NCBI GenBank assembly: GCA_000004985.1
Contig: GG738866.1
Reading direction: 5' to 3' (one strand)
DNA length: 64,000 bases
Source of the DNA: Naegleria gruberi
Lineage: Eukaryota
The translations under genes and the position numbers were made by a program. Under the pieces are notes generated by a model. That model worked only from the letters and a program-made list of their open reading frames with translations. It did not search any database and had not been told where the DNA came from. Every line of letters begins with the position of its first letter. Position 1 is the first letter of the stretch. Positions 27,301 to 51,300 of this stretch are shown here, in pieces.

Positions 27301-27315
27301 CCCAAAAAACTATAA
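24312..27315 (+). CDS. SH3-domain RhoGEF (Dbl-homology) protein with coiled-coil and Pro/Ser/Thr-rich tail
   Basis: Four exons: 24312..24325 (14 nt: ATG TCA GGA GAG CA|GTAAGT), 24386..24761, 24873..25408, 25494..27315. The SH3 domain is 'LIIYDFEATNEGELTVKEGEIIEVMEVYDDGWSLCKRQKQKGLIPSSY'. The DH domain is 'RNELVRELLQTEESYVQSLRLFVNSY...', with 'PVQR|IPRYKMLLEQIL' rejoined across the third intron, which is the DH consensus. Confidence 0.65.
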
Positions 27316-28457: not shown

Positions 28458-30799
28458 TTAAGGTGTTGTGCTTTCTTGTGAAGATTCAGTAGTTTCTGTT
28501 GATTCAGTCTTTTCCTCAACGATTGTGGATTGTTCTTGTGGTGGAACTTCAGTTACTTGCTCTTCTGGTTGACTTGTTGGTTCCTCGTTAGTTGATTGTT
28601 CTGTTTGTTCAACTGTTTCCTTAGTTTCTGTTTCGGTTGTTTGTTCAGTTTGGGTGGTGGTAGTTTCCTTAGATTCCTTTTGGGCTTTCTCTTGTTTTTC
28701 TTTAGCACGTTGTTCCACAATTTGCTTTTCCTTTTCAATTATTTCCACGACAGCCTTCACTTTCTCTTCTGTTTCACCAAAGACAGTGATGGAAGAATCC
28801 TTTAAATTGACCTTAACGATAGTATCAGTTTCTGTTTGAATTTTAGATCTTTGTTTGTTAATATTCCTAGCAACCTTAACATCAACCCTCAAAACTTGTT
28901 TGTGTTGAGTTTTTCTTTCATGTTCAAGTTCTTTAGAAATGATGGCTTCAACTTGAGATTTGGCCTTTTGGACTTCATCTTGTTTGTATCCTGTAATCTT
29001 GATAGTGTTTGATTTCTTCACAACAGTTACCCGTGTGTTAGTTTCCTTTTGAATCTTTTGGGAGGCTTCAATAATTACTTCTCCATGAGCTGGCTTTTGG
29101 AGTGGAATTTCAGCAATTGAGGCATCCTTCATGAGTTGTGCAACATGCTTGATAGCAACATCAGCACCTGATCCAGTTCCTGAAATTTTAACTACGTTAG
29201 CCTTCTTGTCGATAACTGTATTGACAACTCCGTCAAGATTTTGAATCTTTTTGAGGTTTTCTCCTTTCAATCCAAACAAGAGATCGATCATATCTTCGTG
29301 AGATTGACCAAGTTTGGTGATTTGAATTGTCTTTTCTTGGAGACCCTTTTCCAAGAATTCGTTAATGAGCTTTCTGGCAGCCTTAATTTGTTCAGTTGAG
29401 CCAGTTATTTTACAAGAACCTTCGAGCTTGTCTACGAAAATATCAGCTCCGGTTTCCTTCTTCCATTGAGAAACAACTCTGGTGAGTGGAACAAACATTT
29501 CCATCTTGAAACGAATTGAAGTTGATTCAGTCTTCTTTTTGGTGGTGAATAACTTTTCAATTAATTCCTTAGCTACAGCAACAGTTTCTGGAGTACCCTT
29601 AATAACAACTTGACTCAACTCCTTATTGATATTGACATCAGATCCAGATTTTTCTCTGATACTCTTAATGGTGGCACCCTTTTTACCAAAAACTTTTCCA
29701 ATCATTTCTGGATCAATGTTCATCTTTTCTGTGTGAACAAACTTTGAGAGACTATCAACTTCTTCTTGGATTTGCAATCTCTTGAGAGTGAGTTCTGTAA
29801 TTTCATTTTTAATGTCTGATCCAGTAACAACAGCTTCTCTGCTCTTGGTATCAATTAATTCAAGCAATTCCTTTCTTTCCTTCTTGAGCTGAGCAATTTG
29901 CTTTCTAGCCTTGGTGATGAATTTCTTCAATTCGTCAGATCCAGTGACTGATTCAGAAGCCTCTACAAGCATTGGTTCGTATTGTTGTTTAGCTCTCTTT
30001 AAAGCCTTCTTCTTTTCTGAAATTTCCTTTTCAGCCTTTTGGAAATTATTAACAACAATTTGGTATCGTTTGTGAACATCGTGTTGTTTGACAAGTATAT
30101 TCTCATATTCGTCGTATAATCTTTTAGCATCTCTCAACTTGTTGAATTTTGTCTTGAGTTGTTTCAATTCAGATTCTGGTGTTTCCTTAGATTCAAGTTT
30201 AGCCTCAACCTCACTCATAGCCTTGTTGTATGCAGCTACAGTAGAGTATGGCAAAGAAGATTTCTTAGCAATAATAATTTCTTTCTATTTTGAGAAAGAT
30301 CCAAATAATTCCGAAATGAATATGTTATGTAAAATGTTGTACATACCAATGAAGCTCTTTCATTATCTATTGCTCCCTTTTCCTCTTCAAGATTTTGTTT
30401 GTTTACCAAAGCAGTATCATAATCAACTTCGAATGATCTCAACTTGGATTTAATTAAATTCTTCTTTTCTCTTTCCAATTTATTTTCCTCAAGTTTTGAT
30501 TCAGCTTCAGCCAATTTTTGTTTGATTTCACTTTCAATTTTATCAATTTGTTGATTGAGACTCTTTACACGTTCTCTAGTTTCACTCAACTCTTTGTTAC
30601 TCAACACGGAAGATTCCTTGAGTGTTTTAGAAAGATTACTAGTATGAGATTTAATTAACTTGTTGATTTCACTGAGACGCTTCTTCTTTTCCTTTTCAAT
30701 ACGGATTACATCATCAAGAGTCAAGGAGACTTGTGGTGCTGTTGTTGTATTCCCTTCTTCAATAAAAGTTGGTTCTTCTTCCGTAGGTTGTGAAAGCAT
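28458..30799 (-). CDS. Multi-KH-domain RNA-binding protein with N-terminal coiled-coil
   Basis: Exon 1 is 30347..30799 (real ATG at 30799, 'MLSQPTEEEP...'). The intron spans 30285..30346 (GTATGT...AAATAG). Exon 2 is 28458..30284. Several KH-like GXXG-context modules are present ('VFGKKGATIKSIREKSGSDVNI', 'LFGLKGENLKKIQNLDGV'), with Lys/Glu-rich coiled coils and an acidic T/E/Q-rich C-terminus. Confidence 0.5.
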
Positions 30800-31942: not shown

Positions 31943-33332
31943 CTAATTCAGTAAACGATTCAATAAATCTCCAATGGTCATACCATCTCTTTCTAACCAT
32001 TCTGGTTTATCATTCCATTCATCGCCCAGTGCATATGAGGAGCCGATTACTTGTCAGTGTGGAGACAATCTTTTGAATGGCAACCTTAATCTCCAAAGTA
32101 GCACCATAAGCCCCACATCCCCATCGTCCTGAATTGATTAATTGACCATTGAATTGTGAAAATGCACTGTAGGCTTTTGTTATTTCTCTCATGATACACT
32201 TGTTGGATCTTTCATTTAATTCTACTTCAGTATCAAATGGAATAGCATCAATAAAAAGGAGAGTTTGTGGGCTACCAAATGGTTGCAAATAATTCAGAGA
32301 TTCATTCAAGGCATTCGATTCTTTCAAGTAAACATGTCTATTAAATGTGAAATCAGTGACATTTTCCAATTGTCTATAAACTCCTTCTACAATCAAACAT
32401 TCCTCTGCTTCAATTTCTTTACAAATCATTGAAAATGGAAGCATTTCAGGGTAAATTCCAAAGAATAATTCTTCCTGAGTTGAGTAACTTCCTGGACCAA
32501 TCATTTTGTTTGCAAAAACAGTAGAAATTGAAGTTCTTGTGGACATTTGCTCCATTCTTGAAGGTAGAATTTCCATTACTTGCTTTTCAATTAATTTTTC
32601 CATATTTTCTTCAACCAATTGTTTCACATTATTAGAATCTACTCGAATTCTCCTCACTGAAATCTTTTCATTCAAAAAATTCGAATAGCTTTCATCCCTT
32701 TTAGACAATTCAACTATTCTAAACATTCTCCTCAAATAATTTGCCAATATTTTCAAATAAGTTTCACTCGAAGGAGTCGACTTGTGAGTCCACTCTCTCA
32801 AACTCGTCTCAAATCCAACAAACTTTCTTCCACATAATTGTTTCTTTGGATATTGAATTGCTCCAATCAACATACAGGCCACAAGAGTTGCAATTTGCAA
32901 TCTGGTCAACTCTACCTTCTGATTAGCTTCTGAACATAGTAAAACTTGCCCATCTGGGAATAATTCAGGAAGAAGCAACACTAAACCTTTCACACAATCC
33001 AATAATTCACCATTACTTTCACACAGTGAATCAAGCGTAGAAACACATGTCTTCATGTATGTTAATTCCAACTCATTCTCATCAAACTTTCGGGAAATTA
33101 CAAAATTTGATGAAGAATTACTAGATTCCCGATAGGAACGTAATAAATCAATTATTTGAGTCAATGAATATGATGTTGAATCATCATTATCAATGCATAG
33201 AGCTTGACAAATGGTCCAAAAAGAAACACTTTCTAATTCTTGGTCTTTTTCTGATAATTTTACAATGCCAGAATTTAAAACTTGATCGATAGGTGAGGTT
33301 GGAAGGATGAGGTAACGTTCTTGTTGTGACAT
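31943..33332 (-). CDS. PARG: Poly(ADP-ribose) glycohydrolase (PARG), with apparent +1 frameshift near the 3' end
   Basis: Real ATG at 33332. The annotated frame stops at 32019 ('...LICTGR*'). 'GPGSYSTQEELFF' matches the PARG GGG-X6-8-QEE signature, and 'EITKAYSAF...SGRWGCGAYGATLEIKVAIQ' matches PARG 'ELNKAYCGF...[20 protein letters not shown]'. Removing one G from the GGG run (C-run at 32025..32027 on the plus strand) continues the frame as 'LICTGDEWNDKPEWLERDGMTIGDLLNRLLN*' to 31943, which resembles PARG 'YFTFGDSELMRD...LTVGDVYKLLLRY'. Confidence 0.6.
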
Positions 33333-33616: not shown

Positions 33617-36600
33617 ATGCTCACAAGCCCTAGAGAAGAATTTGCAGACTCGGGTGATGAAGATGATAAGGACGTTATCGATCAATTTAAAAAGCTGATA
33701 CGGCTTTCTAGGAATTCAAAACAAAATCATAGGAATTTTGCAAAAACTGAAATATCAAACAATATGAATTTTGGAAAGAATAACACTACAAGTGAAAAGG
33801 AAGAAAAAGTCAGTGGTATAGCTAATATGGTGATGAAACGGTTAATGATGGGAAAGTTTGTTACACAAGTCAGGCCTCATTTTCTCTCTGCTGTTCTATA
33901 TTCCGATGAGAGTAGAGAGGACGATTGTTCATCAGTAGCCAATGTATTGTACTCTCGACTCGTTGATTCAATTTCAAAAACTTCTAGGTCGCAAACCATT
34001 GTTCTTAATGGAAAAACAACAAGAAAGAGAGTGAAAACAACATTAACCTTGTTGAACCTTTTATTAGGAGCAAAAGGTAGTGCATCTATTGCTTCCGAAC
34101 AGCTTTCGTTATTTTACAGATTTGGTTCAACTAGTTTGGAACATGGAGAGTACTTGAAACCACTCTTTGCTTTCAATATTGGAATTACATTCAAAACTGA
34201 AAAGGGTTCGTCACAACTATCAGCTCTCGATTTTGATGTGGCTGCTTCTCTTTTCAATAGGTTTGAGATTGAATATTTACTTGAGAAGAAGAGTCCTTAC
34301 CAAACAGCTGTTCAATGTATTGTAGAAAGAATTGAAATATTCAAAGACTTGTTGTGTGCACCTTCAAAAATGTTAGAACCTCTGCTGGGCCAAACTTTTG
34401 TTGAATTGAAATATTTCGCTTTCATTAATAACTTGAAAAAGGAGGTACCAATGTCAGAGTCTAGGTTTTATGATTTTCTCAAGAATATTAAGAGGGCTCT
34501 TTTGTGTTCAACAAGAGAGATTAATACTCTTCTAAGAACGTTATCCATCATACTGCTATTATTGGATTTGGAAGATAACACATCATCTGATGCTTTCAAT
34601 GAGGCTATAAAGTCTGAAATAGAAAGCCATTTGGAAACATTTGACTCTGAGTTACTGGGTCAAATATGTGAAATATTACACATGGAACAATTTGAAGTAT
34701 TGAAAAGTGTTGGAATGATGATAGACAATAAGAGAGAAGAGCTAGGATTTGCGTTTACCAAGTGCACTAGTTTTGTTTGTATTTTGGTTGAATCACTATT
34801 CAGATGGATAGGACAAAAATGTAAAAAAGCATCAAAAGATTTTGTAAATAGTATTGAAATTGATGAGAATCTTGAATGCGAAAATATAGCAGCAGTTCAC
34901 ATTATAAGTTTCCCAGAATTGTCAGCAGAAAAGAACATCATTTATTCCTTTGGAGATTTATGGTGTAATGCCAGTTCTGAGCACGCCTACTCTTGGGCTT
35001 TACAATTTTTGGTAGAGGATATTTCAACAACCCATACAAAGGAAGGATTTGTGACTGATCCTCTTATTGATATTTTAGAAGGTTCTTCAAGCAGAGAAAT
35101 TATTGACTTTTTGTTTGGGAATACTGGTTTATTGTGTTCCTATCCTTCTCTTTCAGATACATCAACTTACCACGACAGAAAGGATGCTATAGATAAGGTT
35201 ATTTTCTTCTTCCGTAATAATTCATATTATGGACTAAGCAGTGTAAATATGGATCAAAATGATGGAAATCACTACATGATTAACCATTCATTTGGAAAAT
35301 TCAAATATGAAGTTGGTTCATTCTTTCCAAAATATATCAATGAAGATGTCCAGCACCAAATATTGAAGGCTGGAATACCAAGTGTTGAAATATCTGATCT
35401 ACACAAGGATTTCCTTCATTCAATGAAGAGTTTATTCTCACCGACTGCCTTGAACTCGGATCCGACTTTTGTAACCTTTTTCCATTTGAAAACCAATACA
35501 TCAACTAATGATTTAATGCAACAAATGATTAATAGCCAAGTTATGACAGTCTCTGATGTATGTGAAAAGTCCTTTGATGTTACTCTTTCGAAGAAATCAT
35601 TCTGGAAAGTTTTTCATCCACTTTCATACAAAAAGTTTTCAAAAGATACCGCTCTTGACCTGGCAGTTTCAAAGATACTTCTCCACTCTATTGGATTTCA
35701 AAAGAGTGGTCAAACACAATTTTATTTTATTGGCAAATCCTCAGTTATGCTTAAAAGAGATACTTACGAAACATTGAGAGCGCACGTTTTTGATGTTATG
35801 AATGAAGCTGCAACAGTTATTCAAAAGTTGTGGAGGCGCTATAAGTTGAAAAAGAAATTGAGGGAATCTATTAAGGAGGCTATTGAAAACAACAGGAAAG
35901 AAATTAAAAAGAAGCCCTCTCCTCAAAAAATTGAAATACCAAATGAAGAAGTGCTGTTTTCAAAGCCAAAGATGGCTGTCAGCACCACTCCTCTAAGCGA
36001 AAAGAAGAAGAAACTTCAAAAGTCATATGCTTATGGATTAGTAAAAAGAAAAGAGGCAATTAAAAAGAGAGCCGCTTCTCCAATGAAGAAACCAAAGCCA
36101 CAAAAGGTAGAAAAGGTGGATATCGACACTCAGGTATCTGTAATTCAAGCATTAATTCGTGGTAAATTGGCAACCAGACATATGTCTAAAAAAGTTGACC
36201 TTAGTTTAAAGATCCAAAGATTGTACAGAGAAAAGAAGAGGAATGATATTGAAAGAGAAATAAGAAAAAGAAAGATTAATGTGATAAAAAAGAGAAACGA
36301 GCAAAAGAAACATGAGATTGAAAAATTGAATGTTGCCGCTAGGAAGATTCAACAAGCATGGGTCAACTATAAGGAAAATTATTTTCAAAAACAACTAATT
36401 GAGGCAGTGATCATAATTCAAAGGGCTTGGAGAGCTTACAAGTTGAAAAGGTCATTGAAAATTCTTCTAAAGATAAGACGAGATGGAGAGAGAAGGAAGA
36501 AAGAATATGAAGAAAGGGAAAGAAGACTGAAAGATAAAGAGATGCAAGTTGTAAGAGAAACCAAAGAATTGGAATATCAAAAACATATACTTGAAGAAAA

Positions 36601-37303
36601 GGAGAAGCTTTTTGTGAAACAGCACATTGTAGATAAAAAGCTGAAGGAAAAGGAAGAGCAGGTATGGAATTCATTACAAGAAATCAGCAATAGTCTGATT
36701 CATTCAAATAGAACTCAACTACCATTAAGCAGCCCTCCTCAACCACCTTCGAAAATTAGCAATCTTCCACTGCTACCTTCAAGTCAGCCAAAAAGACAGT
36801 TGGATGATTCATCAAAAGTTGCAACTAAAATGAGAGAATCATCAGTGAGAACAAAAACCAATATCACAAACGTGTCTAATAACTCAGAAGATAACTCGAG
36901 TTCTAACAAGAAAATTTCATATGCAGACCTGCTAAAAGAAGCCTATGGATCAGCATTCGAATCGAAAATTAAACCAAAACCTCCTTCTCTGAAAAAGGTC
37001 AACAAGACAGAATCAGAAATTGACAAATCAAAGATTGCATCTCCAAGAAAAGTCACTACCAATTCCCAAAACAAGAGTACCATTATTACAAATATTCCAA
37101 CAAGCAGAGTAGTTCCAAAACAACCAATACTTGAGCGTCAAACCCTTAATACTTCAAAATATCACCCTAGTACCATAATAGTTCCAGAAAAAGCAATGAA
37201 ACAGATGATTGAACGTAATGAAAAGAAGTCCAAGAAACCTAATGAAACGTGGAATCAATGGAATTTGCTTGTTCAGGAATTATCTAACGAATTTAATCCC
37301 TAA
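33617..37303 (+). CDS. IQ-motif (calmodulin-binding) protein, 1228 aa, with Lys/Glu-rich coiled-coil tail
   Basis: Single ORF with a real ATG. There are at least three IQ motifs ('AATVIQKLWRRYKLKK', 'VIQALIRGKLATRHMSKK', 'AARKIQQAWVNY...AVIIIQRAWRAYKLKR'). The N-terminal ~650 aa is not assigned to a family. Confidence 0.5.
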   Translation: MLTSPREEFADSGDEDDKDVIDQFKKLIRLSRNSKQNHRNFAKTEISNNMNFGKNNTTSEKEEKVSGIANMVMKRLMMGKFVTQVRPHFLSAVLYSDESREDDCSSVANVLYSRLVDSISKTSRSQTIVLNGKTTRKRVKTTLTLLNLLLGAKGSASIASEQLSLFYRFGSTSLEHGEYLKPLFAFNIGITFKTEKGSSQLSALDFDVAASLFNRFEIEYLLEKKSPYQTAVQCIVERIEIFKDLLCAPSKMLEPLLGQTFVELKYFAFINNLKKEVPMSESRFYDFLKNIKRALLCSTREINTLLRTLSIILLLLDLEDNTSSDAFNEAIKSEIESHLETFDSELLGQICEILHMEQFEVLKSVGMMIDNKREELGFAFTKCTSFVCILVESLFRWIGQKCKKASKDFVNSIEIDENLECENIAAVHIISFPELSAEKNIIYSFGDLWCNASSEHAYSWALQFLVEDISTTHTKEGFVTDPLIDILEGSSSREIIDFLFGNTGLLCSYPSLSDTSTYHDRKDAIDKVIFFFRNNSYYGLSSVNMDQNDGNHYMINHSFGKFKYEVGSFFPKYINEDVQHQILKAGIPSVEISDLHKDFLHSMKSLFSPTALNSDPTFVTFFHLKTNTSTNDLMQQMINSQVMTVSDVCEKSFDVTLSKKSFWKVFHPLSYKKFSKDTALDLAVSKILLHSIGFQKSGQTQFYFIGKSSVMLKRDTYETLRAHVFDVMNEAATVIQKLWRRYKLKKKLRESIKEAIENNRKEIKKKPSPQKIEIPNEEVLFSKPKMAVSTTPLSEKKKKLQKSYAYGLVKRKEAIKKRAASPMKKPKPQKVEKVDIDTQVSVIQALIRGKLATRHMSKKVDLSLKIQRLYREKKRNDIEREIRKRKINVIKKRNEQKKHEIEKLNVAARKIQQAWVNYKENYFQKQLIEAVIIIQRAWRAYKLKRSLKILLKIRRDGERRKKEYEERERRLKDKEMQVVRETKELEYQKHILEEKEKLFVKQHIVDKKLKEKEEQVWNSLQEISNSLIHSNRTQLPLSSPPQPPSKISNLPLLPSSQPKRQLDDSSKVATKMRESSVRTKTNITNVSNNSEDNSSSNKKISYADLLKEAYGSAFESKIKPKPPSLKKVNKTESEIDKSKIASPRKVTTNSQNKSTIITNIPTSRVVPKQPILERQTLNTSKYHPSTIIVPEKAMKQMIERNEKKSKKPNETWNQWNLLVQELSNEFNP

Positions 37304-37371: not shown

Positions 37372-40300
37372 ATGTCGGAGGAAACACCTGTGGAACAACA
37401 AATATCCTCCAATATTGATGATGATCATCATCAGGTGGAAAATACTACCACTAGCATCACTGAGGATACCAACAATGATACATCGACTGTTAATGAACAA
37501 ACAGAAGATGAAACAACAAATATTGTCGAACAAACCTCCGAAGAATCAAAGCAGGAAGAAACAACAATTGAAGAAAATACATCAATAGAAGAAAAACAAT
37601 CTGTTGAATGTAATAACAATGACGATACTATTATTCAACCAACAACAGAAGAATCTACAAAGGTAGAAGAACAAGTAACTTCTCCAACGAGTGAGACCAA
37701 TTTTGATAATGGTGATTGGTTGGATGGTGATTCTTTTGCCACAACCGATGATCATCAACAAGAAACATTGTATAATAACGATCAATCTTCTACTGAAAAT
37801 AGCACACTGCCCGAACAAACAAATCTAGTGAGTGATAGTGTTATTTCTGCTCAATCAACAGATGAACAACAAGAAGCAACAACAACAAACACTGAGGAAC
37901 CAATAGTTGAAGAACAATCATCCGAAAAAGTAATTCCTAATACTTCATCACAGGAAGATTTTGGAGATTATTCAGAGGATGCTTCAGAAGCAATAGTTAT
38001 TGGAGAGACAATGCACGAACACAATTCATCCCAAGATGTAAATAATCAAGTGGAAATACCTTTGGAAGAATCTGTACAAACCAATGAGTCCAACACCTTG
38101 GAAAGTACAAACAAAGTAGAACATTCCGATAGTGTTGTTGAAGAGACTAATAACGAAAATTCAGATGAGGGATTTGCAAATAATGATGATTTTGGTGATT
38201 TCCCAAGCACAGCAACAGCAACCATGGAAACACCAACTATTGAGGAGCCATCAACAATAGTGGAATCTACATCTCAAGAGGGTAGCAACCAAACTTCTAC
38301 TGAGGATAATCTTAATTCGTCTGAACAACCTGCCGAAGATCAACTTGAGGAATCAACCAATCCATCAGAAGAAGGTAATAAGCCAGAAACAACTGTAGAA
38401 ACTGAATTCTCCTCCGTCCAAGAGGAGATGAAGTTTGCAAATGATGAAGATTTTGGAGATTTCCCAACATCGACCGAGGTGGAAACATCCCAACCTGCAC
38501 ATATTAATGAAACAACTGAACCAGTCAGAGAATTTGCAGAAGATGAAGATTTTGGAGATGTTCCAGTATCTACTGTGGTGGAAACATCCCAATCTACACT
38601 CGTAAAGGAAACAATCTCTGAACCTGTACCGGTTCAAGAATTAGCCAAGGATGAAGATTTCCCAACATCTACAGAGGAAACAGCCCAAAAAGAAGAGCAT
38701 GTTAATGACACGAATGAAAAAATAGAATCTGTTGATTCAACAGGCCAAGAAATTGAAATTGTTCAACCAACCACACAAGTTACTGGGTTTGACGATAATG
38801 ATAATTTTGGTGAATTCCCAGAGGTTGCTGAAAATACTCATAAGGTAAAAGGGTTTGGTGATGACGATGATTTTGGCGAATTCCCAACAGAACAACCAAG
38901 TGCACACACTGAAACTGTTATACAGCCAGCAACACAAGAGGAGAAGTTTGTAAATGATGAAGATTTTGGAGATTTCCCTCAACCTACACTCACAAATGAA
39001 ACAATTTCTGAACTAGAATTTGCCAAGGATGAAGATTTTGGAGATTTCCCAACATCAACTGAGGAAACAACCCACGTAAATGAAACAAGTTCTGAACCAG
39101 TTCAAGAATTTGCTCAAGGTGAGGATTTCGGAGATTTCCCAACATCTACTGAGGAAACATCCCACGTAAATGAATCTACTAACCCACCAACAGATGAAAC
39201 AAATGGTGGATTTGCAGAGGATGATGATTTTGGTGATTTTGCTCCAGCAGTTGAATCGACTGAGGCTAATGCAGAGGATGATTTTGGTGATTTTGCTGAA
39301 CCTACAACAGATTCTACTACAGAACAACCAACAACTACAGCAGATCATAATGAAGAAGACTTTGGAGATTTCAATGAGCCTACCCAAGAATCTACTAAGG
39401 AAGATGAAGACGATTTCGGTGGATTTGGGGAAGCAAAGGAGGAGGAAGAAGAACCTGTTGCTAAACCAGTTGAGATCAATTATGCAGATCTTCTTAAGGA
39501 TCAAAAACATGTTATTGATTCTATTCTTTCAATTGACCAGATCAAAAACGAGGACGAATTTTCCAAAGTTAAACAATCTGTTCACAATTTAGTTAGTATG
39601 CTTATACCAACTGAACTTGCAGGAAATCCAGAGAGAACTGACATTACTGGAGAATCTGGAAATACTCTAGAAAAACTATTCAATATGAATTCCAATCACA
39701 ATGCAGATATTTTAAGCAAAATGTCTGTTTGGCAAAATAGTTGTGTGGAAAAACACTTTTTACTCTCACTAGGAATGGAAAAAAAGAAGAATAAGAAGCT
39801 TAACAAACCACTCAGAAAAGCACTTCACAGAAGAACAGCTTCCACAACCTACTCGACACCAATTTCTGGAGATACCCCTCAAAAACCAAAGATTGATACT
39901 CCAAATGTAGATCAAAGAATGAAGATTGATGAAATTGGTAACATTTCTCAAAGAATGCTAGGAGCAAGACATAGAAGAGTTGGTTCCACTGTGACTGACC
40001 TTCATCTTTCTCCAAGAACTGTTCCATTAGGTGTAAACACAATGGAACAGGCTGTTTCACCAACCGCTACAAGTCCACTCCCAACTACTCCTGTATCTAC
40101 CAATAAGTTTACTGGAAACGTTCCATCACCAAGTTTATCGGCTCAACACACTGATGATCTCATCAATTCTTACACTCCATCTATCAATACGCCTTCCTCA
40201 AGTAAGCCAAAGAATGCTGAATTGGATGATATTGCAGCTTTAGTATTTGGTTCTGGATTTGCCTCTCCAACAAAGGAGATACCAAAGACAGAAGTCAAGG

Positions 40301-42228
40301 TTGCAACCAGTACCATCAAAATTACAACCACTTCTGCCTCGCCTTCAGGTGTTGCTCCTCAATCATCAACTGCATCTCAAAAACCTTCTGCTAGTAACAA
40401 TGGTTTTGATAACGATGACTGGGGAAGAATCATTCCAAACATTTCCACAAATACCAATGATGTTAAACCTGTTAAGCTAGATTCACCTGGTTTTGAAAAC
40501 GACACCAAACAATCTGCTACTATTTCCCAACAACCAAAGCCATCTCTATCACCTGTTAAAAAAGAAAGTGTTGTTTCTGCCAACGACGATTTTGGTGACT
40601 TCCCAGAACCAAAGTCAACAAAAGAAGAAACTGAATGGTCAAGTAATGATTCATGGGATGCACCTCCTCAAACATCTCCAAAAGCTACTTCAACAACTGA
40701 CTCTTGGTCTACACCTGAGCCAAAGGAGGTTTCAAATGATTCTTGGGGAGATGACAACAAGTGGACTGAACAATCATGGGAACCTTCACCACCAAAAGCA
40801 ACAGAAACTAAATCAGAAGTGCCAGTCAAGAAGATTGAATCTTCTGTTGTCTCAGCTAGTGAAGATGATTTTGGAGATTTCCCAGAACCAAAAGATCATG
40901 ACCCACAACAACACGATTCTTGGGGAAATACCCAAAATAATTCATGGGAAAGTTCTAGCAATAATTGGGCATCAAATAATGATTCATGGGGAACTTCTCA
41001 AAATGACTCCTGGACAACCCAAGTTGACTCTTTCAAACCTGAGCCAACCTCTTGGGAAAGCTCGTCCATAAGCAATACTAACAATGCTGCCAGCTCAACA
41101 CCATCATTTACTGATCAAGGTTTTGCCAATGATGATTTTGGAGATTTCCCAGTTGTAAAGGAGGATTCAAAGCCTCAAGCAGATTCTTGGGAAACTCAAA
41201 TACCAACCACTATTGAACCAGTCCAAACACCAGAAGCTTCAGTTCCAACTCCATCGTTCCAAACTACATCTCAACCTAATAGTGGATTTGACGACTTCCC
41301 AAAACAACAAGACGAGCAAGGTTTTGGTAACGATGATGATTTTGGAGATTTTCCAGAGCCACAAGACCATTCCCTTAAACAAAATGACAACGATGATTTT
41401 GGTGATTTCCCAGAGCCTCAAGATCACAAACCACAAGATGATTCATGGGGAAGCAACATTCAACCTGTCTCTAACAACGACTCTTGGCTTTCAGCTATTC
41501 CTACAAATGTACAAACTTCTGTTAAACCTGCTCAATTAGGAGGGTTCGATGATTGGTTGTCTCCTGCAACAGTTTCAACTCCACCTGCACAATCAACAGG
41601 TACACCGCTAAGTACCCCTCAACCAATTTCAGATGATTGGCTTTCAGGATCCATTTCTACTCCAACAGTTCCTCAGTCTCAACAAACAACTCAACCTACT
41701 GTAGTTGCTGATGATTGGCTCTCAGGATCTAGCTCTACAACAGCTCTTCCCCAAACTCAACCTGTTGGTGATGATTGGCTTTCTGGCTCCATTTCCACTC
41801 CAACAACACAATCATGGTCAACTGCTGCTGTTGCATCAACTGTTGAAACAACTGAGGATGATAGCTTTGGAGATTTCCCAGAACCAAAGGATCACGAACC
41901 AAACCATCAAGATAACGATGACGATTTTGGTGATTTCCCAGAACCTCAAGATCATGTACCAAAACAAACATTTTCCAATGATGGATTTGATACTTTCCCA
42001 GTTTCACAAAATATTATTATTCCTCCTGTTCAAACAAAGCCAATTGGTGGATTTGACGATTGGTTATCTACTCCAACCTCTCAATCAACAGGGTTTTCCT
42101 CCCAACCAACTTCCCAACCTGTAATTTCTGATGATTGGCTCTCCACTACCACCAGTGCTACTACTTCTCAACCATCTACAAATAATACTGCTGCTGGTAA
42201 ACCAAATGATCTTTTTGAATTTTTCTAA
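37372..42228 (+). CDS. Acidic low-complexity protein with ~27 [DE]n-F-G-D-F-P motifs, Ser/Thr/Pro-rich middle, and 'DDWLS'/'DSW' Trp-acidic repeats
   Basis: 1618-aa intronless ORF with a real ATG 68 nt after the IQ-gene stop. Motif copies include 'NDDDFGDFPST', 'NDEDFGDFPTST', 'EDEDFGDVPVST', 'DDDFGEFPTE', 'DDDFGDFA', 'EDDFGDFPEPKDH' (x5), plus seven '[FGSA]DDWLS[GTP]' and several 'NDSWG' copies. There is one non-repetitive segment (~aa 700-840, 'INYADLLKDQKHVIDSILSID...'). Product assignment is inferred. Confidence 0.55.
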   Translation: MSEETPVEQQISSNIDDDHHQVENTTTSITEDTNNDTSTVNEQTEDETTNIVEQTSEESKQEETTIEENTSIEEKQSVECNNNDDTIIQPTTEESTKVEEQVTSPTSETNFDNGDWLDGDSFATTDDHQQETLYNNDQSSTENSTLPEQTNLVSDSVISAQSTDEQQEATTTNTEEPIVEEQSSEKVIPNTSSQEDFGDYSEDASEAIVIGETMHEHNSSQDVNNQVEIPLEESVQTNESNTLESTNKVEHSDSVVEETNNENSDEGFANNDDFGDFPSTATATMETPTIEEPSTIVESTSQEGSNQTSTEDNLNSSEQPAEDQLEESTNPSEEGNKPETTVETEFSSVQEEMKFANDEDFGDFPTSTEVETSQPAHINETTEPVREFAEDEDFGDVPVSTVVETSQSTLVKETISEPVPVQELAKDEDFPTSTEETAQKEEHVNDTNEKIESVDSTGQEIEIVQPTTQVTGFDDNDNFGEFPEVAENTHKVKGFGDDDDFGEFPTEQPSAHTETVIQPATQEEKFVNDEDFGDFPQPTLTNETISELEFAKDEDFGDFPTSTEETTHVNETSSEPVQEFAQGEDFGDFPTSTEETSHVNESTNPPTDETNGGFAEDDDFGDFAPAVESTEANAEDDFGDFAEPTTDSTTEQPTTTADHNEEDFGDFNEPTQESTKEDEDDFGGFGEAKEEEEEPVAKPVEINYADLLKDQKHVIDSILSIDQIKNEDEFSKVKQSVHNLVSMLIPTELAGNPERTDITGESGNTLEKLFNMNSNHNADILSKMSVWQNSCVEKHFLLSLGMEKKKNKKLNKPLRKALHRRTASTTYSTPISGDTPQKPKIDTPNVDQRMKIDEIGNISQRMLGARHRRVGSTVTDLHLSPRTVPLGVNTMEQAVSPTATSPLPTTPVSTNKFTGNVPSPSLSAQHTDDLINSYTPSINTPSSSKPKNAELDDIAALVFGSGFASPTKEIPKTEVKVATSTIKITTTSASPSGVAPQSSTASQKPSASNNGFDNDDWGRIIPNISTNTNDVKPVKLDSPGFENDTKQSATISQQPKPSLSPVKKESVVSANDDFGDFPEPKSTKEETEWSSNDSWDAPPQTSPKATSTTDSWSTPEPKEVSNDSWGDDNKWTEQSWEPSPPKATETKSEVPVKKIESSVVSASEDDFGDFPEPKDHDPQQHDSWGNTQNNSWESSSNNWASNNDSWGTSQNDSWTTQVDSFKPEPTSWESSSISNTNNAASSTPSFTDQGFANDDFGDFPVVKEDSKPQADSWETQIPTTIEPVQTPEASVPTPSFQTTSQPNSGFDDFPKQQDEQGFGNDDDFGDFPEPQDHSLKQNDNDDFGDFPEPQDHKPQDDSWGSNIQPVSNNDSWLSAIPTNVQTSVKPAQLGGFDDWLSPATVSTPPAQSTGTPLSTPQPISDDWLSGSISTPTVPQSQQTTQPTVVADDWLSGSSSTTALPQTQPVGDDWLSGSISTPTTQSWSTAAVASTVETTEDDSFGDFPEPKDHEPNHQDNDDDFGDFPEPQDHVPKQTFSNDGFDTFPVSQNIIIPPVQTKPIGGFDDWLSTPTSQSTGFSSQPTSQPVISDDWLSTTTSATTSQPSTNNTAAGKPNDLFEFF

Positions 42229-42357: not shown

Positions 42358-45300
42358 ATGTCTGCTCTTAGCCACATCCTTAACACCCTCACCCTCCTCA
42401 TCACAATACTTCTGCTCACATCTCTATCACTCGGAGCCAAACAGCCATACATTCTTCCATACTGTGCCAAACTAACAGTAGAACCTTACAATGTGAAAAT
42501 TGCTACAGCTTCCACAACCATAACTTTCAAATCGACATCTGATCTGTGGTTCTTTCTCGACTCTTCATACTTTGCCCTTATTCCAAACAATACAGATCAT
42601 GGCAAGTTTGCTGACTTTGCTCGTTATTGTGTCTATTTGATGGACACTTCAACTTCCTACACTTATTTACCAGCTGTGAATAGTATGAATTTGACGAGTA
42701 CTAAAACTTTCACAGCCACATTTACCAGTTTACCAAATAACAAGAGACTCTCACTGTCAATGTCAAGTTGTTTCTTTACATTATACAGAGAGAGTGAATA
42801 TCATCAAGAGCTTGTGCCAATTCCACCAATTAGTATCTACAATTATGCAACTGGTACTGGAACTGTTTCATCTTTTGCTCCGACCTATGATTATGATTCA
42901 TACTATGCCAAGTATTGTCTTAATAAGGCAACGAATGATTCAAGATATTCAGCAGAGACTTTCACCAGCACAACTTCAACATCAACTGTAGCCAGTTCTT
43001 TATCTTTGATATCGGAAAGCACTTTTGCAAAAACATATTCCAATTCTGGACTATCTATTTCTGGTAAATGGAAAACAGACTCGTTCTCTTCGCAAATTAA
43101 TTCATTCACCTATTCCAATTACAATTATCAACTCTTCAATCCAATCAATATGAATTTCAAGAAAAATGCAACTTTTATCAAGTATCCTCTCAAATGGAAA
43201 CGTCACATTAATGTGGCATCTGAGTCTGTCAGTTTCACAGTGCCATCAGATACTTCCATCACAAAGAGATGTGCAGATCCTCAAGAATTACAAGATTTAC
43301 TCGACACCTGCATTTCTACCAATCAAATTTTTAAGGTAAATGATGTAGAAGGAGGAACTCCATGGCATTATGGAGCTAATCCTTCATCTCCAGCTGAGGT
43401 TTCAGATGTCAACATTTTAATAACCTATTCTTATTACGAAGCTATTTTCTATTCAGGACTGGCTCTTCCTTATTTGAGAGCTCTCATAGTTAATGGAACT
43501 TTGACAATTGCAAGAACTGACATTTCAAATTCATATTTTTATTGTGCAAAGAATACTTTGAGAAACCAATTCCAATATTGGGATTCCACAGTTTATCACT
43601 TTATCAAGTTTAGTACTATTCATAACATGTATTCATTTGATTCAAGTAGGAAGAGTTATGATTTGAATACAATGGCAGGAATTGGCATTGGATCTCAAAA
43701 TATTCAATTGACTAATTTCGAAAATCAAAATGCAAAGAGTGAGAATGGAGTTTCTTTGCAGATTAGTGATACTTCACTGGATGATACATTCTATTCTCAA
43801 ACAAGAGTTGTTCCAATCTATCAATATAACGAAACAATCAATTCAGTTTTTGATTTGACATTTATTTATGATTCTGAGCTTGGATCCAAGACAGGTGGTG
43901 CTTTGGTGACACAGGAAGATTTTGTGACAACTTATAAATCAACTGCTTGTGCTGAAAAGTATGGTTCCAGACTTGATACTCAATTGAGCAATTTCTTTAC
44001 GTCAAGTGCTTATACTTTTATTAGAATTCCAGAGTTTGCCAATAGACTAAACTATTCCAAGTCTATTTCCTATAATATAACATCAAACTCTATACAAATG
44101 AATTATCTAAACACTGAGCAAGCCGTTCAGTTCAGTTTACTAGTAGATTCTTCATTATTAGTTTACAAAGAGGCAAGAATTTCACTTGCAGATTATTCCT
44201 TCTTTGTAACACCAAATAGACAAGAATGGAATGAAATGAATGCTACCTTGAATGTAAATATAACAAATAGTGGAGAAATTAAAGGAACTTTTCAAGTGAC
44301 AGCAACTTGTGGTTCACCAATCACAGTTAAGGAAGCTAATGTCAAGACTGCTGACATTGAAAATGGAAAATCAACTTTGATTCAATTTGGAGTGACCAAT
44401 TCAGAATGGAAATCATATAAGGATTTACTAAATGTTTCCTGTTTGGTAAATGTTAAAATTATTAAGGAAGAATTATGGACCAGTACGAATAAGGAAATTA
44501 CTATATATGAAACTATTGTTTTGGATCATGGTTACTTTGTACCATATTGCGAACAAAAATATAACGAGCCATTTATTGAATTTTCTGAGAGCCATTTGAA
44601 TCAATCCAAATTTACAAGAATTTCGAATACGTTTTACAATTCTATTCTATTCGCAGTGAAAAGCAATACAACAGATCAAATTTCTGCCAGATACAGTATA
44701 TCAGTCATCCCAACAGACGATAACCCATTTATTCTTTCAAATTCTTCAATACTGACCTTTGAATTAATACCTCAACAAGAAACAACTCTGAATTTGGAAA
44801 TTGTGGGAATTGACTTTGAGAAAATCATGAAAGAACGAATTAATCTGAGCAATTATACCTTCCAAATCACAATCCAGAATATGGATACAGCTGACTGTTG
44901 GTCCGATTATGGAAAATCCATCATCCAACCATTCACGTTCCATGTCGAATATTTGTGTCCAGACAATTTCGTAGGAGTTTTGTGTGATATTCCAGTATGT
45001 TATGGATACAATGCCACAGATATGGAGAACGTATGCTATGGACATGGGTCATGTCTAGCACCAGATACTTGTTCCTGCTTGAATGGTTATACTGCAGATA
45101 ATTGCTCTATACCTATTTGTTTTGATTACAATTCGACTGATGTCAGAGTGTGCTCATCACACGGTGAATGTTTATCACCAGATAATTGTCAATGTTCAAA
45201 TGAATGGACTGGTGATGAGTGTAGTATTCCAATATGTTTTGGAATTCCAGCAAATATTGAATCCACTTGTTATGGTCATGGTAACTGTTCTAATCCAGAT

Positions 45301-48300
45301 ACGTGTCAATGTATTTCAGGATATACATCATCTAATTGTTCAATTCCAGTTTGTTTTGGATTTAATGCTTCAGATATTTCAAATGTTTGTTCAAATCATG
45401 GACAATGTGTTTCACCTGATAACTGCCAATGCGAAAATGGTTATACTGGACTTAATTGCTCAATTCCAATTTGTTTTGGTAAGCATTTACTCATGAATGA
45501 ATCAGGTTTGATCTGCTCAACTCATGGTCATTGTGTGGATACAGACATTTGTCTTTGTTTTGATGGATATTATGGTCCACAATGTGAACTACATAATTGC
45601 TTCAATGTCCCGTTCAACGATTCAAACGTATGTTATGGACATGGTAATTGTACAGAACCAGACCAATGCCAATGTCAAGATGGCTACACTTCATCAAATT
45701 GCTCAATTCCAATTTGTTATAGTTATAATGCATCTGATATTTCAAATGTCTGTTCTACACATGGCAAATGTACTGAACCTGATGTGTGTGCATGTGATAG
45801 TGGGTACACTTCTTTGAACTGTTCAATTCCAATTTGTTTTGGAATTCATTTAGCAATGAATGAATCAATGTTAATTTGTTCATCACATGGTTATTGCGTT
45901 GAACCAGATACATGCATTTGCGAGAATGGATATTATGGAGCAATGTGTGAAATGCATAATTGCTTTGGTGTGAAATTTAATGACTCCACTGTATGTTATG
46001 GACACGGAAATTGCTCACAACCAGATTCCTGTGTTTGCTCAGATGGTTATACATCTGATAATTGCTCAATTCCAATTTGTTTTAACATCACAGCTTCAAA
46101 TTCACAAGTTTGTTCATCACACGGTGAATGTTTATCACCAGATAATTGTCAATGTTCAAAAGAATGGACTGGTGATGAGTGTAGTATTCCAATTTGTTTT
46201 GGAATTCCAGCAATTAATGAAACTGTTTGTTATGGACATGGTAATTGTTCTAATCCAGATACGTGTCAATGTAAATCAGGATATACTTCATCGAATTGTT
46301 CAATTCCTCTTTGTTATGGATTTAATGCTTCAGATATTTCAAATGTTTGTTCAAATCATGGACAATGCCTTGCTCCTGACACTTGCCAATGCGAAAATGG
46401 ATATACTGGACTTAATTGCTCAATTCCAATTTGTTTTGGTAAGCATTTACTCATGAATGAATNNNNNNNNNNNNNNNNNNNNNNNNNNNNNNNNNNNNNN
46501 NNNNNNNNNNNNCATTCCAATTTGTTTTGGAATTCCTGCAACCAACGAATCTGTTTGTTATGGACACGGCAACTGTACCTATCCAGACTATTGTACATGT
46601 AAGCATGGTTTCACATCTAGCTACTGCTTCATGCCAATGTGCTATGGATACAACGCCTCAGATGCTCAAGTTTGCTCTTCACATGGCCAATGCATCTATC
46701 CAGAGTTGTGTAAATGCTCAACTGGGTATACCTCAGAAAATTGTTCAATTCCTATTTGTTTTGGCGTTCATATCTTGATGAATGAAACAGCTCCCTGTTC
46801 CTCACATGGCCATTGTGTTGCTCATGACATTTGTCAATGTTATGACGGATATTATGGAGATAATTGTGAAATACATAATTGTTATGGAGTACCATTCAAT
46901 GATTCTGCAATGACTTGTTATGGCCATGGTAATTGTTCATCTCCAGATATTTGTCTTTGTGAAGAAGGTTATGTTTCGGATAATTGTTCGTTACCAGTTT
47001 GTTTTGGGCTCAATTCTTCTGATTCTAATGTTTGTTCTTCTCATGGACAGTGTATTAAGCCCAATGAATGTGAATGTTCGGTTTATTTTACAGGATTGCT
47101 TTGTGATATTCCAATATGTTTTGGAATTCCAGCAAGTAATGAATCTACTTGTTATGGACATGGTAATTGTTCTAATCCAGATACGTGTCAATGTATTTCA
47201 GGATATACTTCGGATAATTGTTCAATTCCAGTTTGTTTTGGATTTAATGCTTCAGATATTTCAAATGTTTGTTCAAATCATGGACAATGTATTTCACCTG
47301 ATAACTGCCAATGCGAAAATGGATATACTGGACTTAATTGCTCAATTCCAATTTGTTTTGGAAAACATTTACTCATGAATGAATCAGATTTGATATGCTC
47401 AACTCATGGACAGTGTGTGGATACAGACACTTGTCTTTGTGGTGATGGATATTATGGTCCACAATGTGAACTCCATGATTGTTTCCAAGTGCAATTCAAC
47501 GATTCAAACGTATGTTATGGACACGGTAATTGTACACATCCAAACCAATGCCAATGTCAATATGGTTACACTTCATCCAATTGCTCAATTCCAATTTGTT
47601 ATAGTTATAATGCATCTGATATTTCAAGTGTTTGTTCTGCACATGGTCAATGTATTGAACCTGATTTATGTGAATGTCTAAATGGTTACACTTCTTTGAA
47701 CTGTTCAATTCCAATTTGTTTTGGAATTCATTTAGAAATGAATGAGTCAATGTCAATTTGTTCATCACATGGTTATTGCGTTGGGCCAGATACATGCATT
47801 TGTGAGAATGGATATTATGGAGCAATGTGTGAATTGCACAGTTGTTTTGGTGTGAAATTTAATGACTCCACTGTATGTTATGGACATGGAAATTGTTCAC
47901 AACCAGATTCCTGTGTTTGCTCAGATGGTTATACATCTGATAATTGCTCAATTCCAATTTGTTTCAACATCACAGCTTCAAATTCACAAGTTTGTTCATC
48001 ACACGGTGAATGTTTATCACCAGATAATTGTCAATGTTCAAATGAATGGACTGGTGATGAGTGTAGTATTCCAATTTGTTTTGGAATTCCAGCAAGTAAT
48101 GAAACTGTTTGTTATGGACATGGTAATTGTTCATATCCAGATACGTGTCAATGTAAATCAGGATATACTTCATCGAAATGTTCAATTCCTATTTGTTTTG
48201 GATTTAATGCTTCAGATATTTCAAATGTTTGTTCAAATCATGGACAATGCCTTGCTCCTGACATTTGCCAATGCGAAAATGGTTATACTGGATTTAATTG

Positions 48301-51300
48301 CTCAATTCCAATATGTTTTGGAAAACATTTACTCATGAATGAATCAGATTTGATCTGTTCATCCCATGGTGGGTGTATTTCACCTGATACATGTCTATGC
48401 GATAATGGATTTTATGGCCCACAATGTGATTTATTCGATTGTTTTGGAATACAATATAATGATTCGAATACTTGTTATGGAAATGGTAAATGCATTTCAC
48501 CAAATTTGTGCGAATGTTACGATGGATGGACATTTACAAATTGCTCCATTCCTTTATGTTATAATTTAACAGCCTCTGATACGAATGTTTGTTCTTCACA
48601 TGGAAATTGTCTGAAACCTAACGAATGCCAATGTCACGAAGGATTTACATTTGAAAATTGTTCAATTCCAATTTGTTTTAACGTGAACGCATCAGATTCT
48701 AATATTTGCAGTGGACATGGTACATGTATCTCTCCAAATAATTGTTCATGTGAAGAGAATTATTTTAATGCCAATTGTGAAGAAACTACTTGTTTTGGAC
48801 TTGTTTCTAATAGTTTACAAAGTTGTGGTGGATTTGGTAATTGTACAGCATTTGATATTTGTGAATGTGACTCGAAACATGTTGGAGAAAACTGTTCCAT
48901 TACTTTTTGTTTCGGATTACTTTCTAACAATTCGAACAATGTTTGCTCGGGCAAAGGTCAATGTTTAGAATACGACCACTGTAACTGTTCACAAGGTTAC
49001 TATGGAGAATCATGCGACTTATTCGATTGTTTCGACATGCCAAAAAATTCTTCACTTGTCTGTTCAGGAAAAGGTAAATGTTTAGATTCGAATATTTGTA
49101 AATGCGGTATAGGATTTTATGGAGATTATTGTCAAGATTTTGATTGTTTTGGAATTCACAAAGATGATCCAAATGTCTGTTCTAGAGTTTCTCCATGTAC
49201 TTCTCCCAATAATTGCTCCTGTCCAGCTGGATATTACGGAGCTAGTTGTGAACTATTCAATTGCTTTGAAATTCAAAGCAACTCCTCTAAAGTTTGTTCT
49301 GAACATGGGAAATGTCACTTGCCAAATAATTGTTCTTGTGAAGAAGGATATTTTGGGAGAGATTGTTCAGAATTTGAATGTAATTTCATTCACAAAAATA
49401 ATGAAACTGTTTGCAGCTCAAATGGAAAATGTCACTCACCAAATAATTGTTCATGTTTTGATCATTATTATGGAGAAGATTGCGAATTATTTAATTGTTT
49501 TGGGAAAGCATTCAATTCTTCACTGGTTTGCTCTGGAAATGGCCAATGCCTCGATTACAATAATTGTAAATGTAATATATCATTTTTAGGTGTGGAATGC
49601 CAAGATTTTACCTGCCATGGATTACATTTTAATGATTCGAATGTTTGCAGTGGAAATGGAAGCTGTTTATCTTTGGATAATTGCACATGTTTTGATGGAT
49701 TTACTGGGAGTGATTGTGAAATTAATATTCCAGATCCAATTATTGAGAGAAATGAAACTAATAACCAAACTGAAACAACAAATTCAACTCTATTTAGTAA
49801 TCAAACAAGTAGTGATGATAATTCTACCCTGTTTGATAATTCCACTTTGATTAATGGAAATAATCAAACTGAAATGTCTAATTCAACTTTAGAAAGCAAT
49901 CAAACTGTTGTTATTGAAAACTCAACACTACCATTAACGAATCAAACCCTTAATTCATCTTCCATAAATGGAAATCAAACTGAGGTATCAAATTCAACAG
50001 CACTCACAAGTAACCAAACTAATGTTATTGATAATTCTACTTCTTCTGAAAATTCAACATTATCAGCCACCAATCAAACTTTGAATTCCACTTCTGTAAA
50101 TATTAATAACCAAACCGAAACTAATTCTACTGATTCCAATAATTCCACTCTAGAGTCGTGTTCTCAACATGACGGTATACAATGTTCTGGTAATGGATTT
50201 TGCAATCATTCTGAATGTATTTGTGAAAATGGTTACCACGGAACCGATTGCAATCTATTCGAATGTTTTGGAATCAATTCGACTAATTCTCAAGTCTGTT
50301 CTGGTAATGGCCAGTGTGAATCTCCTAATTTATGTGCCTGTAAAGAAGGATATCTATCACCCAATTGTTCCTCATTCACTTGCTTTTCCAAACTAAACTC
50401 AGAACCATTAGTTTGCTCTGGACACGGATATTGCCAAGATCTAAACTCGTGCCAATGTGATTCTGGTTTCTATGGCCCTCAATGTGACCTTATCAAATGC
50501 TTCTCCGTCCTCTCCAATGAATCATCAACAGTTTGTCAAGGTCGTGGAAATTGCACAAATCCTGACACATGTCAATGTGAAACGGGATATCACGGTCCAG
50601 AATGTAACATTCCAGTATGTTTTGGCAATTACAATGAAAATTCAACAAGTGTTTGTAATGGAAATGGTCAATGTTTTGCAAAGGATACATGTCAATGTAA
50701 TGAAGGATATCTTGGTGAAGAATGTCATTTGACAGTCTGTAACAAAACTTCATGTGTTTATGGTGTTTGTGAAAGTGCTTTGAATTGTAAATGTAATGTT
50801 GGATATGGAGGAAAAAATTGTGAGCAAGTCATTTGTTTTGGTCATTTGGCATCTGACATTAATGTTTGTAAGGGAAATGGATATTGCATAGCTCCTGACA
50901 AGTGTAATTGTTCAAGTTTGAAATATAGTGGAAAGGAATGTCAATTCGAACAAGATTCTGATGAGCAATGCTCCATTTATGGAGATTTAACAATTTTTAA
51001 TTCTAATTGGATGAGTGAAAGTTTGAAAATTGGTTTGAGTGGAAAATTGAATCAAACTTTGAGGTCAACTATCAAATATTCTCCTAATTTATTTTCAATG
51101 AATAGTTTCAAATATCTAATCAAGATTCAAAATAACGGAATTAGAAGTTTCGAATATTCTATTCGATCATATTGTGAAAATGGAAATTCTTTCAAGAGTT
51201 TAGGAAAGATGGTTAACTCTATTGAAAGCTCTAAATCATTAACTCAATACGAAAGTATCCAAATTGAAAATGATGCTTTTGGATTTGCATTCTATTCTCT

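Follow-up and report, generated by a model that had tools for sequence, protein, structure and literature searches.

A giant FGDF-rich acidic protein of Naegleria gruberi is a probable member of the aftiphilin/Laa2 family of HEATR5 cofactors

The described proteins closest to the one discussed here are Laa2 of Saccharomyces cerevisiae, which is ~280 residues long, and aftiphilin (AFTPH), which in humans comprises ~936 residues. In yeast, Laa2 serves as the cofactor by which the HEATR5 protein Laa1 is connected to the clathrin adaptor AP-1, and mutation of its FxxΦ motif abolishes the Laa1–AP-1 interaction; aftiphilin, a partner of HEATR5B/p200 and γ-synergin, has the corresponding role on human HEATR5B (PMC10798858). 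Both proteins bind the C terminus of HEATR5 via three short helical regions (HR1–HR3), with the Clba box of aftiphilin overlapping HR2–HR3. HEATR5 is conserved across eukaryotes and its AP-1-binding cofactors are fast-evolving, clear homologs of Laa2 being reported in fungi only and those of aftiphilin in animals only (PMC10798858). In this work we describe a gene located at positions 37372..42228 (+) of a 64,000-nucleotide stretch of Naegleria gruberi DNA (contig GG738866.1, referred to below as the window). With a probability of about two in three, its product is a giant member of the aftiphilin/Laa2 family, disordered over most of its length, and a HEATR5 cofactor that would link this scaffold to AP-1 via multivalent γ-ear-binding arms. 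Literature searches pairing Naegleria with aftiphilin or HEATR5 found no paper.

The gene is a single, uninterrupted, intronless open reading frame (ORF) that encodes 1618 residues followed by a stop codon, and its coordinates, strand and length agree exactly with those given in an earlier reading of this DNA made from the letters alone (the sequence-only reading). End to end, the product is the same (100% identity) as N. gruberi EFC44779.1 / XP_002677523.1 / D2VED3 (NAEGRDRAFT_79642), which is annotated as 'predicted protein' and whose database entry contains no precomputed Pfam domain. That reading had called the protein acidic, and it is strongly so, containing 327 D+E and 83 K+R; ~65% of its 1618 residues are S/T/E/D/P/N/Q. 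The share of S/T/P/N/Q/D/E, calculated per 100 residues, is 62–79% outside residues ~700–965 and 44–59% in the centre; outside this central part the protein has the composition of a disordered protein. Two arms flank the centre. Arm 1 (residues 196–685, 37957..39426 (+)) carries 13 acidic F-G-[DEG]-[FYV] motifs, mostly within the module Φ-F-[AGV]-x-[DE]2-3-F-G-D-F-P, and arm 2 (residues 1015–1592, 40414..42147 (+)) carries seven FGDF motifs, mostly FGDFPEP[KQ]DH, interleaved with 23 acidic Trp motifs. Between them lies a conserved helical core (residues 698–801, 39463..39774 (+)) that ends with W-QNS-CVEKHFLLSLG.

Among 5.8e9 clustered proteins, the only close homolog is FDP41_011287 of N. fowleri (1554 residues), with 38% identity over 46% of the query. 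The central block is ~63% identical in the two species (~80% mean column identity), and both the start (MSEE) and the end (DLFEFF*) of the complete coding sequence are kept in N. fowleri, as are acidic Trp motifs (DSWLS, DDWMF). Naegleria belongs to Heterolobosea (Discoba) and not to Amoebozoa, in which the sequence-only reading had recommended looking for orthologs. A HMMER profile built from the cores of the two Naegleria proteins (residues 698–882), searched against 1.84e9 representative proteins at E <= 0.001, matched just eight proteins, namely the two from Naegleria, one Naegleria-like fragment, and five shorter proteins of 380–590 residues (E 8.6e-17 to 1.5e-4), one of which, KAL0487498.1 of Acrasis kona, is also heterolobosean. 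In the five short relatives (P0004–P0008) an acidic [DE]FG[DE]F region is followed by the core, 'LE.LFK....HN..L.KM..W.DS.IEK.FL.SIG', then by 'EL..IA.LV[FW]', a K/E-rich stretch, 'DDDGFG', 'LPDLSFVV', and a C-terminal [LF]DDF[LFM]. The full-length ones (P0004, P0005 and P0007) have two to four acidic [DE]FG[DE]F motifs upstream of the core, and the sequences of P0006 and P0008 start within or just before it. P0006 (380 residues; metagenome contig Ga0401357_00080, 2001..3143) begins 10 bp past an 815-residue gene call on the same strand, and its gene model probably lacks the N-terminal part, so that the true protein would include the acidic FGDF region.

The relationship to Laa2 is indicated by the Pfam profile PF17104 (YBL010C/LAA2), which has 292 positions and a curated gathering cutoff of 24.7 bits. 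The segment of the N. gruberi protein that comprises the last FGDF motifs and the core (residues 655–812) matches this profile with 28.5 bits (E 2.1e-6), the equivalent segment of N. fowleri with 34.7 bits (E 2.8e-8), and the relative P0005 with 25.4 bits (E 1.8e-5). All three share the profile span 2/3–141/142, which is its first half. An FGDF-only control (residues 500–660) gave no hit, an FGDF/Trp control (residues 1290–1450) gave 8.4 bits (E 2.7), and the core alone (residues 698–812) gave no LAA2 hit. Because the FGDF-only and core-only controls fail, the match needs both elements at the right spacing. The non-repetitive segment, for which the sequence-only reading recognised no family, does exceed the PF17104 cutoff when taken together with its adjacent FGDF motifs. 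In an AlphaFold2 model of residues 698–824, calculated from a seven-sequence alignment (mean predicted local distance difference test score, pLDDT, 66.6; predicted template modelling score, pTM, 0.33), helices are found at residues 704–719, 727–744, 764–771, 775–785, and 791–799. The core is thus predicted to consist of five short helices with linkers and to form no globular domain, a layout matching that published for the HEATR5-binding regions of Laa2 and aftiphilin (PMC10798858). Residues 698–801 are described here as a putative HEATR5-binding region, the candidate counterpart of HR1–3 and the Clba box. No solved structure was returned when the PDB was searched by sequence, whether the query was the profile of the family or aftiphilin.

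For comparison with aftiphilins, a search seeded with a C-terminal aftiphilin sequence returned proteins named aftiphilin by their source, having a PF15045 match and being <=92% identical to the seed; all comparisons use these retrieved sequences and not the seed. A profile–profile alignment (hhalign) of the five short relatives with seven aftiphilins gave a score of 47.8 (E 2.3e-5, probability 76%) over 208 colinear columns, spanning the acidic Phe motifs and HR1/HR2 and pairing 'W.DS.IEK.FL.SIG' with 'WGGSHSNKKLL.SLG'. Controls with reversed profiles scored 15–19, and those with 30 shuffles made within 25-column windows scored 11–20. For N. gruberi, hhalign pairs the core segment (residues 698–801) with 'QWGGSHSNKKLLCSLG' of aftiphilin. 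A second colinear match is provided by the C-terminal LPDLSF[VM] common to the short relatives and aftiphilins, with LPDLSF present in P0004–P0008 and in all aftiphilins examined; we estimate at roughly 1e-4 the probability that both families would by chance have an identical six-residue motif within their final ~60 residues.

The resemblance to both known cofactors extends to the order of their elements. Laa2 has an acidic FxxΦ motif and then short helices ending in a W..S....L..LG-like box, as in the Naegleria protein, although one functional FxxΦ motif has been described in it (PMC10798858), compared to ~20 motifs flanking the core in a protein of 1618 residues that has a Trp-motif array in addition. 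Aftiphilin likewise has acidic [DE]FG[DE]F motifs upstream (DDFGDF, EFGDF, and WGDF in the verified sequences), followed by a helical HEATR5-binding region with 'W-x2-S-x4-5-L-x-SLG'. However, both Naegleria proteins end in DLFEFF, and the N. gruberi protein is without WxxF and has a several-fold higher number of motifs. Unlike either Laa2 or aftiphilin, it carries arms on both sides of the anchor.

The FGDF array is not accounted for by composition, as 15 exact FGDF copies are present, compared to a mean of 0.016 and a maximum of one in 2000 residue shuffles. The figure of ~27 copies in the sequence-only reading was an over-count: there are 11 copies of the strict [DE]2-3-FGDFP and 17 of FG[DE]F, 20 if FGDY, FGDV, and FGGF are allowed, and ~23–24 in total when the degenerate remnants DEDFP, GFDDFP, and GFDTFP are included. 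The two clusters that it delineated are confirmed, with 13 of the 20 relaxed copies at residues 196–685 and seven at residues 1074–1522, and so is the near-invariant module of the second cluster, FGDFPEP[KQ]DH, found in five of the seven copies. Peptides such as DDDFGDFPEPKD and NDDDFGDFPEPKDH exemplify the motif. In cluster 2 (residues 1074–1526, 40591..41949) the motif is extended to FG[DE]FPEP[KQ]D[HE] in both Naegleria species. The conserved PEP[KQ]D[HE] tail may represent a longer binding epitope or be recognised by a second reader; we know of no γ-ear or G3BP consensus that contains it.

Lack of conservation of the array in orthologs, which the sequence-only reading had named as a refutation, is not seen in N. 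fowleri. The ortholog of this species has 11 FG[DE]F motifs, including FG[DE]FPEPK[DE], and in a global alignment six of the seven C-terminal-arm FGDF sites of N. gruberi are aligned with an FG[DE]F of N. fowleri. The copy number in the N-terminal arm is lineage-specific, with 13 FGDF motifs in N. gruberi and three in N. fowleri, which has many motifs of the FE[AS]xF[DE] type. Acidic Phe motifs such as FEADFED, FDANFDVD, and FDADFDVDFDADFE (FxDxF-like) are seen at residues ~280–400 of the N. fowleri protein (P0002) and in the relatives P0005–P0008. The presence of FxDxF-like motifs in place of many FGDF copies indicates rapid turnover between motif classes within the family.

The consensus of AP-1-binding sites is FxxΦ in an acid-rich region or ΨG[PDE][ΨLM] (PMC10798858). 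In the N. gruberi protein, 18 sites fit ΨG[PDE][ΨLM], all of them in an acidic context, and 12 sites fit a stricter γ-adaptin ear (GAE) expression of ELM. Within the family the motif varies among FGDF, FGEF, FGGF, and W-G-[DE]-Φ. The receptor is likely to be the ear of AP-1 γ rather than that of a GGA because GGAs have been reported as restricted to opisthokonts (PMC3191125), and the GGA ear, named as an equal candidate in the sequence-only reading, is for this reason an unlikely partner. The other part of that proposal, a γ-ear ligand acting in AP-1 traffic, is supported by the passing of the LAA2 cutoff, the colinearity with aftiphilin, and the fit of the motifs to the consensus.

A second, Trp-containing motif class is also confirmed, including four copies of DSWG, although DDWLS occurs six times and not seven, the remaining copy being DSWLS. 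DSW is found nine times, the four DSWG among them. Of 25 Trp residues, 23 are located within residues 1017–1589, nearly all of them after [DNS][DSN] and mostly followed by G, S, L, T or E, so that acidic residues precede the Trp and do not follow it (for example, 'GGFDDWLSP' and 'NDSWGTSQNDSW'). Of 18 Trp motifs, only about seven have a Trp opposite them in N. fowleri, which indicates that the class is kept and the positions turn over. Candidate partners named in the sequence-only reading are appendage, muniscin-homology, and KLC-TPR domains. Pattern scans of the whole 1618-residue protein found no W..[FW], and hence no WxxF of the aftiphilin type, and no [LM]-x-W-[DE], the W-acidic motif of the KLC-TPR type. 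A reading of the Trp repeats as GW/WG Argonaute hooks was set aside, with five WG and no GW present in what appears to be a coat-accessory context. In epsin, a disordered endocytic accessory protein, an array of DPW motifs (D-P-W-G) binds the appendage. The Naegleria array resembles it in the density of short acidic Trp motifs within a disordered, S/T/P/N-rich region, here as D-S-W-G and D-D-W-L-S, and differs in the middle residue, which is P in epsin and S or D in Naegleria. By analogy with epsin, a second site of the appendage type may be what the Trp motifs bind.

Several observations weigh against membership of the aftiphilin/Laa2 family. The full-length proteins of N. gruberi and N. fowleri align to positions 2–141/142 of PF17104 with 21.6 and 22.9 bits, which falls short of the cutoff, and in Naegleria scores above it are obtained with trimmed segments only. 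The match also depends on an FGDF motif, the helical core alone being unmatched. When only the core is compared to aftiphilin, hhalign aligns 19–27 columns with scores of 22–23, equalled by two of 25 shuffles; not being significant alone, this comparison was rejected as support for homology. LPDL[ST]F is absent from both Naegleria proteins, and in the Pfam scans no member of the family matched PF15045 (Clathrin_bdg/Clba box). The PEP[KQ]D[HE] tail and the Trp array are atypical of known γ-ear ligands. Short linear motifs can converge, and some of the signal in the profile comparisons may have a source other than shared ancestry. The combined evidence nevertheless favours true membership of the Laa2/aftiphilin family.

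Among other explanations, the one that survives best, though we consider it improbable, is that the protein is a multivalent appendage-ligand scaffold of another coat, engaging the α/β ears of AP-2, TSET, or the γ-appendage of COPI, and that its likeness to Laa2 and aftiphilin reflects convergent motifs and a chance similarity of helices. The weakness of the core-only similarity, the dependence of the PF17104 match on FGDF, and the atypical Trp array and PEPKD tail all speak for such a scaffold, as does the presence of aftiphilin and γ-synergin in the AP-2 and AP-3 interactomes as well (PMC10798858). It does not explain why three divergent members fall on the same span of the Laa2 profile and end at the same SLG, why the short relatives and aftiphilin share LPDLSF at the same C-terminal position, or why a profile score that depends on order exceeds that of every control more than twofold.

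Considerably less probable is a role in clustering G3BP, the alternative partner put forward in the sequence-only reading, with the FGDF copies bound in the NTF2-like pocket, as in nsP3 and USP10, and the protein nucleating or dissolving stress-granule-like condensates. The 15 exact FGDF copies are identical to the core of the G3BP ligands alphavirus nsP3, USP10, and herpes simplex virus 1 (HSV-1) ICP8 (PMC4450067, PMC4967826), nsP3 is itself multivalent with two copies, and such multivalency is typical of condensate scaffolds. However, in the G3BP ligands, (L/I/F/Y)-x-FGDF, subsite 1 of the pocket accommodates the hydrophobic residue at position −2, ahead of the first Phe (PMC4967826), whereas in the Naegleria protein each of the 17 FG[DE]F copies carries D, E or N there and none a hydrophobic residue. 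In addition, the copies are preceded by a uniformly acidic context, like that of γ-ear ligands, FGEF, FGGF, and WG[DE]Φ are interchangeable within the family, and the neighbouring domain has its match in a family of AP-1 accessory proteins.

The origin of the repeats bears on the last of the alternatives. At the DNA level, one 99-bp unit in 1.8 copies is the sole repeat detected within the gene, and recent tandem duplication as the only source of the array is therefore rejected. The codons of the core hardly vary from TTT GGW (GGT/GGA) GAT TTC, the first Phe being TTT in 16 and the second TTC in 14 of 17 copies, with a TTT:TTC ratio of 50:25 in the whole gene. This suggests internal duplication as the source of the units, or else a codon preference that depends on context. 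A purely neutral low-complexity expansion by internal duplication, leaving the central block alone functional, would agree with these codons, with the still detectable 99-bp unit, and with the difference in N-terminal-arm copies between the species, but it is the least probable of the readings, since 76% (32/42) of the motif columns in the C-terminal arm, compared to 31% (175/557) of its remaining columns, are identical in N. gruberi and N. fowleri, six of seven sites are kept there, and motifs of the same type lie ahead of the core in the full-length relatives and are found in animal aftiphilins too.

The remaining parts of the protein lie outside the arms and the core. The N-terminal acidic leader (residues 1–195, 37372..37956 (+)) is T/E/Q/N-rich, contains no FGDF, and is poorly conserved; the net charge is ~−49 over 200 residues in this region, and the N-terminal arm is ~19% identical to that of N. 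fowleri. The core is followed by a basic stretch (KKKNKK, HRRTAS, RHRRVGS) and a second conserved block (residues 802–965, 39775..40266 (+)), which ends with AELDDIAALVFGS. The net charge of residues 801–900 is +11, and EL..I..LVF/W of the second block is present in all relatives. The basic stretch, located at 39772..40266 when residue 801 is included (residues 801–965), reads KKKNKK...HRRTAS...RHRRVGSTVTDLHLSPR and is conserved, with 'AELDDIAALVFGSGFASPTKE' following. Its R-x-x-S sites resemble those of basophilic kinases, and the stretch with HRRTAS and RHRRVGS possibly has a regulatory role. In this region, 'PTKE(P)' is similar to the 'LEPTKEP' found in aftiphilin just downstream of the Clba box, which may be a coincidence. 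The C-terminal DLFEFF-COOH (42208..42225 (+)) is identical in N. fowleri, and the other relatives end with [LF]DDF[LFM].

The neighbours of the gene are unrelated housekeeping and signalling genes, with no trafficking cluster in the window, and gene context is uninformative. They include a PSME4/Blm10-like proteasome activator (13144..18732 (−)), a DEAD-box helicase (19205..20812 (+)), a RhoGEF fragment (25444..27315 (+)), a KH-domain protein (28458..30254 (−)), PARG (32019..33332 (−)), and a formin with FH2 and GBD (58864..62133 (+)). Immediately upstream, the ORF at 33617..37303 (+) encodes 1228 residues, the C-terminal half of which combines several calmodulin-binding IQ motifs (PF00612, 29 bits) with a region that is rich in K and E and resembles a coiled coil; a Pfam scan recognised no domain in the N-terminal ~700 residues. 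Downstream, two ORFs of 1414 and 2079 residues (42358..46602 and 46457..52696, both (+)) contain dense teneurin/EGF-like repeats ('CSIPICFG...') and are separated by a 50-N assembly gap at 46463..46512. They are probably parts of one giant secreted or surface protein of ~3400 residues, split by the gap.

The preferred reading, that of a HEATR5 cofactor of the aftiphilin/Laa2 family, implies a mechanism whose every binding step we infer from sequence. By homology, the central short helices (residues ~704–801, ending with W..S....L.SLG) would dock on the C-terminal HEAT solenoid of the Naegleria HEATR5. The two flanking acidic arms would present ~20 copies of [DE]2-3-F-G-[DE]-F, each able to bind one γ ear of AP-1, and many AP-1 complexes would in this way be recruited or cross-linked by avidity on membranes of the trans-Golgi network (TGN) or endosomes. 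Recruitment of AP-1 by the arms is proposed because of the fit of the motifs and the role of the single FxxΦ motif of Laa2. In the C-terminal arm, the ~23 acidic Trp motifs (D[SD]W), together with DLFEFF, would probably engage a second coat-associated site.

These observations are of interest as an evolutionary bridge and as a case of extreme motif multivalency rather than as a new mechanism. We can tentatively go further and speculate, at odds that we put below even, that cofactors of the Laa2/aftiphilin type date to the common ancestor of Discoba and opisthokonts, near LECA, the last common ancestor of eukaryotes, and that the Naegleria protein, with ~20 γ-ear and ~23 acidic Trp ligands, is a hub organising the AP-1 coat. 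If this is true, the heterolobosean family links the Laa2 and aftiphilin families and gives them a far older origin, and its elements, namely acidic FG[DE]F, helices, W..S....L.SLG, EL..IA.LV[FW], and LPDLSF, provide a signature with which such cofactors could be sought in protists and plants. The Naegleria hub could then organise AP-1 coats by avidity or in the manner of a condensate, and its D[SD]W / DDWLS array could couple these coats to a second machine. In N. gruberi, the extreme valency also provides a natural experiment on the relation between ligand number and AP-1 recruitment. For a genus that includes the pathogen N. fowleri, a 'predicted protein' would become a testable trafficking factor.

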